Virus genome (UHGV): UHGV-0101751
Source: a virus
Length of the DNA stretch: 20,418 nucleotides
Strand: one strand, 5' to 3'
In this document: piece after piece, positions 10,591 to 11,406 of the stretch
How the letters are laid out: every line of letters begins with the position of its first letter
How positions within the stretch are numbered: position 1 is the stretch's first letter
Made by a program: the position numbers and the translations under genes
Notes under the pieces: model-generated
The model's database searches: none
Told to the model about the DNA's origin: nothing
What the model saw: only the letters and a program-made list of their open reading frames with translations

Positions 10591-10623
10591 TATGCATTGG
10601 CGCAATGTACGCGCCAATGCATA
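10591..10623. terminator. 13-bp-stem hairpin between convergent genes
   Basis: TATGCATTGGCGC-AATGTAC-GCGCCAATGCATA is a perfect inverted repeat, 5 bp after the 10586 stop and 16 bp before the 10639 stop. Confidence 0.5.
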
Positions 10624-10638
10624 AGTACAGTGTCAGCT

Positions 10639-11406
10639 TTATGCCGCGCTAACACTATGTTCATTCCTAACCACCCCAACCTTCACAAAAGGGCTGCCGT
10701 AGCTTGGTGGCTTCTTGATTAATTTGCCTACATACAGTTTTCTAATATGCTCATCGGCTATTCTGCCAACAAATTCATAACGTTTTGTGTCGGGGCCAAG
10801 AGCTATATCCCTTGTAAAGTACTGCTGAGAACCGGCTTTGACCCAGCATTCAATCTGATAAACTTCCATTATCAGGCCCCCATATGTAGCGTAGGCATAT
10901 TTGAGATTCTCGTCTCTTGGAACCTTTGCCCATACGCCACGCGTAGCTTCATATAATGCCAGAGCGGACATTCCTGACTTGTAGGTGCTGTTTAGCAGGA
11001 AGGCAAGACCGGCGTGCTCAGGAGCAATTTCAGTTTCCTCTTGCAGCACTAAGTGATGGTAGGCGTCCAGTGATATTCTGCCCATCATGGAACCACTTCC
11101 TCGTACCTTATTCGTAAGCTCTCCGACCCCCATAAGGTCGATGCATGTCGCCTCAACAAGTTTGGCTGTGGTTTCATCCATACCATGACGAAGAATATCT
11201 ATGCCTAATTTTTTATTAGCCAAAAGTTCTTTGATCCGCATGGATTTGGGAGAGTCATCGGGATACTTGATGTGATCGAGACAACGAGTCGATTTGCCTT
11301 TTCCTATGTAAAACGGTCTTTTCATCTTGTCTTCTGTATCATAGAGACAGTAAACATAGTATTTAGCCTTATCCAATGATCTCGCGTATACCGATAAATC
11401 GTCCAT
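10639..11406 (-). CDS. GIY-YIG nuclease-domain protein (255 aa), homing-endonuclease-like
   Basis: N-terminal YYVYCLYD ... PFYIGKG with downstream conserved R and H fits the GIY-YIG signature. C-terminal ~150 aa unrecognised. The gene looks AT-richer than its neighbours. Confidence 0.7.
   Translation of the reverse strand: MDDLSVYARSLDKAKYYVYCLYDTEDKMKRPFYIGKGKSTRCLDHIKYPDDSPKSMRIKELLANKKLGIDILRHGMDETTAKLVEATCIDLMGVGELTNKVRGSGSMMGRISLDAYHHLVLQEETEIAPEHAGLAFLLNSTYKSGMSALALYEATRGVWAKVPRDENLKYAYATYGGLIMEVYQIECWVKAGSQQYFTRDIALGPDTKRYEFVGRIADEHIRKLYVGKLIKKPPSYGSPFVKVGVVRNEHSVSAA

Follow-up and report, generated by a model that had tools for sequence, protein, structure and literature searches.

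In this study, we show that the gene at positions 10639–11406 (minus strand) of a 20,418-nucleotide (nt) stretch of the virus genome UHGV-0101751 (the whole stretch is called the window here) encodes a protein of 255 amino acids that is, judged by its sequence, a full-length homologue of the anti-phage nuclease PD-T4-3/CMoRE. The explanation that we favour, and consider probable, is that the gene product is a single-protein type IV restriction endonuclease that depends on modification and is of the PD-T4-3/CMoRE kind, and that the gene is a lysogenic-conversion defence cassette of a phage-plasmid. By homology, a C-terminal reader domain would bind hypermodified bases in incoming DNA, most likely the 5-hydroxymethylcytosine (5hmC) or glucosyl-hydroxymethylcytosine (5ghmC) of T-even-type phages, and the N-terminal GIYxY-YIG domain would then cut the bound DNA, whereas unmodified DNA of the host and of the phage-plasmid would escape because it is not bound. 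The gene is carried in a swappable cassette between the stop of a small partition gene and a backbone palindrome, a place where relatives have other defence or candidate defence genes, or nothing. An initial annotation, made from the letters of the window alone, had proposed that the gene product is either a homing endonuclease of the selfish kind or a nuclease with a role in defence or exclusion. The defence half of that proposal is the one supported here, by the homology to PD-T4-3/CMoRE and by the presence of other defence genes in the same slot; the homing half did not hold.

The family assignment is carried by matches that extend over both domains of the protein. The PADLOC hidden Markov model (HMM) for PD-T4-3 matched residues 11–231 (E = 1.3e-23; 221 of the 255 residues covered), and all seven members of the subfamily that were tested matched it, with 82 bits for the window protein and 78–103 bits for the six others, against 407 bits for a canonical CMoRE fragment. 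The PDB entries 9u7u, 9u7z, 9u75, and 9u8d were matched over residues 12–230, at E = 2e-15 with the single sequence and at E = 9e-23 with a profile of 34 subfamily sequences. Foldseek retrieved the same four entries, labelled "5hmC specific restriction endonuclease ... PD-T4-3", at E = 7e-12. All four are structures of CMoRE from Liu et al. (PMC12923530). The clear GIY-YIG domain that had been noticed at the N-terminus is matched in Pfam by PF22945 (LEM-3_GIY-YIG) at residues 32–104, above the curated cut-off (E = 5.5e-7; 30.1 bits against 27). The remaining C-terminal part of about 150 residues, described at first as an unrecognised domain, has no match in Pfam or NCBIfam, so that this description was fair for the sequence libraries. 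The whole protein likewise has no match in NCBIfam, and it corresponds over its whole length to phrog_5356, whose function is unknown in PHROGs.

The residues expected of an active enzyme are in place. In CMoRE, mutation of active-site residues, including three tyrosines, abolished both defence and nuclease activity, and the catalytic arginine and glutamate are conserved, though they are given without residue numbers (PMC12923530). The window protein has the three tyrosines and the catalytic arginine and glutamate of the GIYxY-YIG motif as defined in that work; its Y17, Y19, Y33, and R41 align to Y17, Y19, Y31, and R39 of CMoRE, and Y17, Y19, Y33, R41, E85, and N99 are invariant among the 34 subfamily sequences. 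The C-terminal domain (residues 105–245; 10672–11094, minus strand) is predicted to be a modified-base reader of the CMoRE type with a PUA-like barrel topology, and its model matches the CMoRE reader as well as PUA-like folds. A profile search of this domain had been suggested as a check; the domain matched here a CMoRE-type reader. The full-length model gave a low Foldseek TM-score to 9u75 (0.38), and the C-terminal domain modelled by itself gave a clean match; the low global score is due to a different relative orientation of the two domains.

What is known of the characterised relatives sets the expectation for this gene. PD-T4-3 is reported to have come out of a functional selection in E. 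coli (PMC9519451). CMoRE binds and degrades DNA containing 5hmC or 5ghmC, and neither binds nor degrades DNA containing cytosine or 5-methylcytosine; it cuts at CN11/N9G and requires a tetramer, a dimer of dimers, for activity, and it gives about five logs of protection against T2, T4, and T6 by direct defence without abortive infection (PMC12923530). PD-T4-3Capno from Capnocytophaga, 48% identical to PD-T4-3, acts on modified DNA of T4 and on Mu DNA with the Mom modification, degrading both (PMC12366544). In the clinical isolate NILS69, PD-T4-3 was one of only two active defences, and it was active in its native host (10.1101/2024.12.20.629700). For the window protein, 5hmC/5ghmC-specific cutting and protection against T-even phages are predictions from homology, and we infer the specificity of the enzyme, its anti-phage effect, its oligomeric state, and the promoter of its gene.

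Several observations weigh against a simple transfer of the CMoRE properties to this protein. Foldseek puts the identity to CMoRE at about 26–29% (alternatively, 75 of the 201 positions that align are identical), and with a score of 82 instead of 407 bits the window protein belongs to a distant sister subfamily and not to canonical PD-T4-3; at such a distance the specificity could differ. Most members of the family have an acidic autoinhibitory loop, a 15-residue insert between helices 2 and 3 (PMC12923530). The corresponding loop of the window protein, YPDDSPKS, is five residues shorter than GEVAAVDDDELLNN of CMoRE and has two aspartates instead of four acidic residues (DDDE), and this short form is found throughout the subfamily except in P0113. 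At the dimer interface, L96 of CMoRE is replaced by C88, with the other interface residues R80 and V92 retained as R73 and V84. The segment around Y127 of CMoRE, which makes a main-chain contact with 5hmC, does not align reliably with the window protein. Moreover, we know of no member of the short-loop subfamily that has been tested experimentally.

These differences are the ground for a serious alternative, itself a variant of the favoured explanation, in which the fold and the defence role are the same and another modification is read, such as the Mom-type N6-carbamoylmethyl-adenine, arabinosyl-hydroxymethylcytosine, or other adducts, so that different phages or plasmids would be targeted. 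In addition to the low identity (about 27–37%), the low HMM score, and the shortened loop, it can draw on the 31 invariant residues that the subfamily has of its own in the C-terminal domain, on the weak activity of CMoRE toward arabinosylated phages, and on the plasticity of the family, as seen in the cutting of both ghmC DNA and Mu DNA by PD-T4-3Capno (PMC12366544). We regard this as a minority view that has to be kept in mind. PD-T4-3Capno is likewise divergent, and in its case modification-dependent defence is kept across a large sequence distance.

The second line of evidence for a defence cassette comes from the place of the gene in the genome. SSU5, Cyrano, and pJN2-26 are homologous to the window up to 10584, where a 119-amino-acid gene stops, and again from 11508–11518 onward, leaving a variable cassette at 10585–11517 (GC content 0.434) that consists of a terminator, the nuclease gene, and its upstream region. 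The nuclease reading frame has a GC content of 0.447 and a third-position GC content (GC3) of 0.445, compared with a GC3 of 0.53–0.64 in nine backbone genes and a GC content of 0.502 in the whole window, and it lies antisense to the neighbouring ParA, 119-amino-acid, 241-amino-acid, and DnaB-like genes, all of which are on the plus strand. The view of the gene as an antisense, AT-richer insertion between partition and replication modules thus stands. The initial annotation had drawn the gene at 10591–11406; the gene is real, with an ATG start and 255 codons followed by a stop, whereas the first of those positions belongs to a hairpin and the reading frame spans 10639–11406. The upstream region of the gene within the cassette (11407–11517, minus strand) is AT-rich, with a GC content of 0.35, and is the presumed location of the promoter. 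A sigma-70 scan returned no strong consensus there, a result that does not help the favoured explanation, and because of it the promoter can only be inferred.

We surveyed the slot in 80 IMG/VR loci, fetched through the 241-amino-acid protein, and in four phage loci; both flanking genes were present in 77, and their slot contents fell into 21 clusters. The GIY-YIG cassette occupied 25 of the 77, and five were empty, with only 202–205 nt in the slot (distance 202–209 nt); in these, about 30 nt separate the stop of the 119-amino-acid gene from the palindrome. At least ten other, unrelated cargoes, mostly non-nuclease, made up the rest of the variation. Among named relatives, SSU5 and pJN2-26 have three plus-strand genes in the slot, Cyrano has one, and PhiR41_1 has the GIY-YIG gene. 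Besides the PD-T4-3-like gene, the cargo includes PD-T7-5 (PADLOC, E = 4.5e-139), DUF2971 proteins (PDC-S31, E down to 3e-41), and a KAP-family nucleoside triphosphatase (PDC-S49, E = 2e-21), so that known anti-phage systems are enriched. The slot has conserved flanks, alternative cargoes, and empty sites as do defence hotspots of temperate elements, and with cargo that varied and that included systems recognised by PADLOC we take it to be a hotspot of the defence type. It has been reported that PD-T4-3 and PD-T7-5 occur among E. coli and Shigella SSU5-like phage-plasmids (10.1101/2025.09.12.675607), which agrees with the cargo found here. A description of the slot between partition operon and palindrome was not found in the literature searched.

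Other cargoes, namely a 351–357-amino-acid protein, membrane-protein pairs of 214 + 136 and 253 + 140 residues, and a lipoprotein, had no match in Pfam or PADLOC and might have defence or exclusion functions as yet uncharacterised. They are found in locus L017 (357 residues, minus strand), L033 (214 + 136 residues), L080 and L037 (253–255 + 140–141 residues), and L028 (a lipoprotein of 225 residues). They belong to phrog_22329 (the 351–357-residue protein), phrog_22270, phrog_17322, and phrog_1353, all of unknown function.

The junctions of the slot are very regular. In the first 40 nt after the stop of the partition gene, 15 of 17 representatives of the cargo types open with their own, mutually unrelated GC-rich hairpin (loci looked at: L002, L013–L015, L017, L019, L027, L028, L030, L035, L037, L050, L075, and L080). 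Several cargo slots retain the spacer TCTGGCAGC..CAGAA ahead of the palindrome.

The cassette is widespread and plasmid-borne. Of the 740 PLSDB plasmids with a match to the region, 136 have it, and of 5426 complete E. coli genomes, 107 have it, on a plasmid each time and never on the chromosome. It had been anticipated that comparison of syntenic relatives would tell an accessory gene from a core gene; the slot proved polymorphic, with the nuclease gene, other cargo, or nothing in it, and a gene universally present with the composition of its surroundings is not what we found. Since the gene is not universal and is AT-richer than the backbone, its standing as an accessory insertion is maintained. 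In 24 loci the cassette is 98–100% identical to that of the window, and in most of them the left flank is about 87%, the right flank 83–84%, and the DnaB gene about 80% identical; mosaic loci have one flank of each type. The nuclease reading frame is intact in 24 of 24 full-length copies, with at most 9 differences in 768 nt, mostly synonymous. By this pattern the sequences indicate recent spread between diverged backbones and purifying selection. A 158-nt remnant in NZ_CP107722.1 (locus L092, 3501–3658) was considered as the footprint of a cassette replacement and rejected as a truncation beside IS26. This remnant comprises the terminator and the 3′ end of the nuclease gene and adjoins IS26 in a mosaic resistance plasmid.

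A cassette far more conserved than its flanks, together with presence/absence polymorphism and empty sites, would also be expected of a free-standing GIY-YIG homing endonuclease that cuts the gene-less slot and is copied into it by repair, spreading selfishly; distant full-length homologues in jumbo phages are even annotated as "putative homing nuclease". Like T4 SegA–G and the I-TevI family, the window protein has a GIY-YIG core and a similar size and is encoded by an AT-rich accessory gene of a phage genome. It differs from them in that its C-terminal domain matches the CMoRE modified-base reader and that no NUMOD or IENR1 helix-turn-helix domain or zinc finger was found in Pfam at E = 0.01, and its slot is shared with the mostly non-nuclease cargoes described above, which do not form the simple presence/absence pattern at one site defined by a target gene. 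A three-gene cassette without a nuclease is likewise above its flanks (93% against 82% identity), and therefore recombination in conserved flanks suffices and homing is not needed; a cassette with the 357-amino-acid gene has co-diverged with its backbone. Moreover, homologues about 75% identical to the window protein are stand-alone chromosomal genes of other Gammaproteobacteria, one of them Providencia, in unrelated contexts, and those members of the family that have been characterised require modified DNA for cutting and show little preference for sequence. Selfish homing is for these reasons very improbable, and homologous recombination in the conserved flanks appears to be what carries the cassettes from one diverged backbone to another.

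The jumbo phage homologues occur in Serratia phages Moabite, 2050HW, and BUCT660, Pectobacterium phage vB_ParM-25, and Klebsiella phage N1M2 (H84–H97). They are 25–30% identical, most of them cover both domains, and their annotation is either "GIY-YIG endonuclease" or "putative homing nuclease", although they may be PD-T4-3-like modification-dependent nucleases directed against competing phages.

A nuclease serving the life cycle of the phage-plasmid itself, whether by degradation of host DNA like T4 EndoII or by processing of replication or recombination intermediates, is a still fainter prospect. It is unlikely because functional relatives do without the gene, which is absent from most of them, including the functional phages SSU5 and Cyrano and the elements with an empty slot. 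The foreign composition of the gene and a two-domain architecture that is that of PD-T4-3 and not of EndoII also speak against it.

The two hairpins by which the gene is bracketed are both present, as had been noted; only the left one is within the cassette, and the right one is conserved backbone. The left hairpin, first drawn at 10591–10623 with a 13-bp stem, measures 10590–10624, with a 15-bp stem and a 5-nt loop followed by TTTTT on the minus strand. It folds at −24.5 kcal/mol (z = −5.8 on the minus strand; none of 200 shuffles as good) and is matched by the terminator scan, and it is the nuclease gene's own intrinsic terminator, inside the cassette. In otherwise 98–100% identical cassettes, the 7 nt at its centre (10604–10610) are found in either orientation, a loop-inversion polymorphism: the window and nine loci have AATGTAC, and 16 loci have GTACATT or a variant of it that differs by one base. 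A second cassette copy or flanking repeat, suspected when many plasmids matched in "2 places", was rejected as the terminator hairpin matching itself, given that the inverted loop of those alleles matches the other strand.

The right palindrome (11518–11573), the right border of the slot, has a stem of 17 + 7 bp followed by TCTTTT and folds at −27.6 kcal/mol (z = −7.1). It is kept in SSU5, Cyrano, pJN2-26, and the empty-slot loci, where it directly follows the partition operon, and it evidently belongs to the backbone, outside the insertion. Within the window it recurs with 95% identity at 3546–3614 and in degenerate form at 17100–17142. Because TCTTTT follows the stem, the partition operon may terminate here; by analogy with N15, the palindrome may alternatively be a dispersed partition (centromere) site. 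The AT-rich module of the palindrome reads CCTGYTTCYGTATAT..ATATACGGAAGCAGG, often with GGTCTGG.AGC ahead. No match was found in Rfam for the region 9000–13000 at E ≤ 1, so that both hairpins lie outside the known RNA families.

The window protein is about 27–37% identical to PD-T4-3/CMoRE of E. coli ECOR68, O157:H7, and APEC O1, and it differs from these in being encoded on a phage-plasmid and in that its activity is predicted. Other type IV enzymes with PUA-like readers, such as the EVE-HNH protein VcaM4I, McrB with its N-terminal domains, and the hydroxymethylcytosine-dependent PvuRts1I and AbaSI, have nuclease domains of the HNH, PD-(D/E)xK, or McrC type; there is no detectable sequence similarity to them, and the structural likeness is at superfamily level only. 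As in the defence hotspots of P2- and P4-type elements, anti-phage cassettes are exchanged at a fixed spot between conserved genes of a temperate element; the difference here is that the element is an SSU5-like phage-plasmid and the spot lies between the partition operon and the palindrome downstream of it. We would suggest, with due reserve and as a possibility on the less likely side, that the slot is an undescribed hotspot of SSU5-like elements with new anti-phage or exclusion cargoes (phrog_22329, the membrane-protein pairs, and the lipoprotein), that the subfamily reads a modification other than hmC or ghmC, and that its reader is an unnoticed branch of the PUA-like (EVE/YTH/ASCH) domains.

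The gene introduces no new principle, being a divergent addition to the known PD-T4-3/CMoRE kind. Nevertheless, it offers an explanation for a gene annotated as "hypothetical" or "LEM-3-like GIY-YIG" that about 2% of complete E. coli genomes carry, in every case on an SSU5-like phage-plasmid. With it, the newly characterised CMoRE family, which attracts interest because its enzymes can be 5hmC-specific reagents, gains a divergent branch with a short loop. Restriction of T-even phages through lysogenic conversion is the likely consequence for carrier strains, a matter of relevance when such strains are phage-typed or targeted in phage therapy. The slot itself is compact and recognisable in a widespread phage-plasmid family and can be mined for new defence genes.

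With regard to the carrier element, large plasmids of E. coli and Shigella match the region at 100% identity, and the Salmonella phage SSU5 and the Escherichia phages CMS-2020a and PhiR41_1 match it at 89–92%; on these alignments the window is evidently part of an SSU5-like phage-plasmid. Upstream of the slot are the ParA gene (9562–10227, plus strand) and the 119-amino-acid gene that overlaps its end (10227–10586, plus strand; phrog_5111 over the full length, E = 2e-78), whose stop is the left border of the slot and which, from its position after ParA, is presumably the small partition partner. Downstream are the genes for the 241-amino-acid protein (11689–12414, plus strand) and the DnaB-like helicase (12475–13815, plus strand), and genes for a primase-like protein and an ATP-dependent ligase are also among the plus-strand neighbours. 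The ends of the window (1–55 and 20364–20418) are perfect 55-nt inverted repeats terminating in GGCACTGTTGCAAA, which we take to be the IS26 terminal repeat. The window appears to be a stretch of SSU5 backbone between two inverted IS26 copies, which fits the 138–170 kb mosaic plasmids that match it at 100%.

There are further features of the window outside the slot. At 8444–9242 (minus strand) is a gene for a GNAT acetyltransferase toxin of 173 residues, of the KacT type in the Cyrano annotation, with a small gene upstream of it; the pair is AT-rich (GC3 0.41), and SSU5, PhiR41_1, and pJN2-26 have different genes at this position, a sign of a second variable slot, this one upstream of parA. 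A palindromic box of 23 nt, TAGATAAGTAAGTACWTACCTAT, occurs at 5617–5639, 7131–7153, 11653–11675, and 17100–17122, three of its copies lying upstream of the open reading frames at 5657, 7254, and 11689 and the fourth between divergent open reading frames; by its appearance it is a backbone box with the role of an operator or promoter. Finally, a 31-nt direct repeat beginning with AGAAAACAAATTGGTTAGGCAC is found at 3642–3672 and 12440–12470, its two copies 81% identical and placed just upstream of the open reading frame at 3723 and of the DnaB-like gene at 12475.
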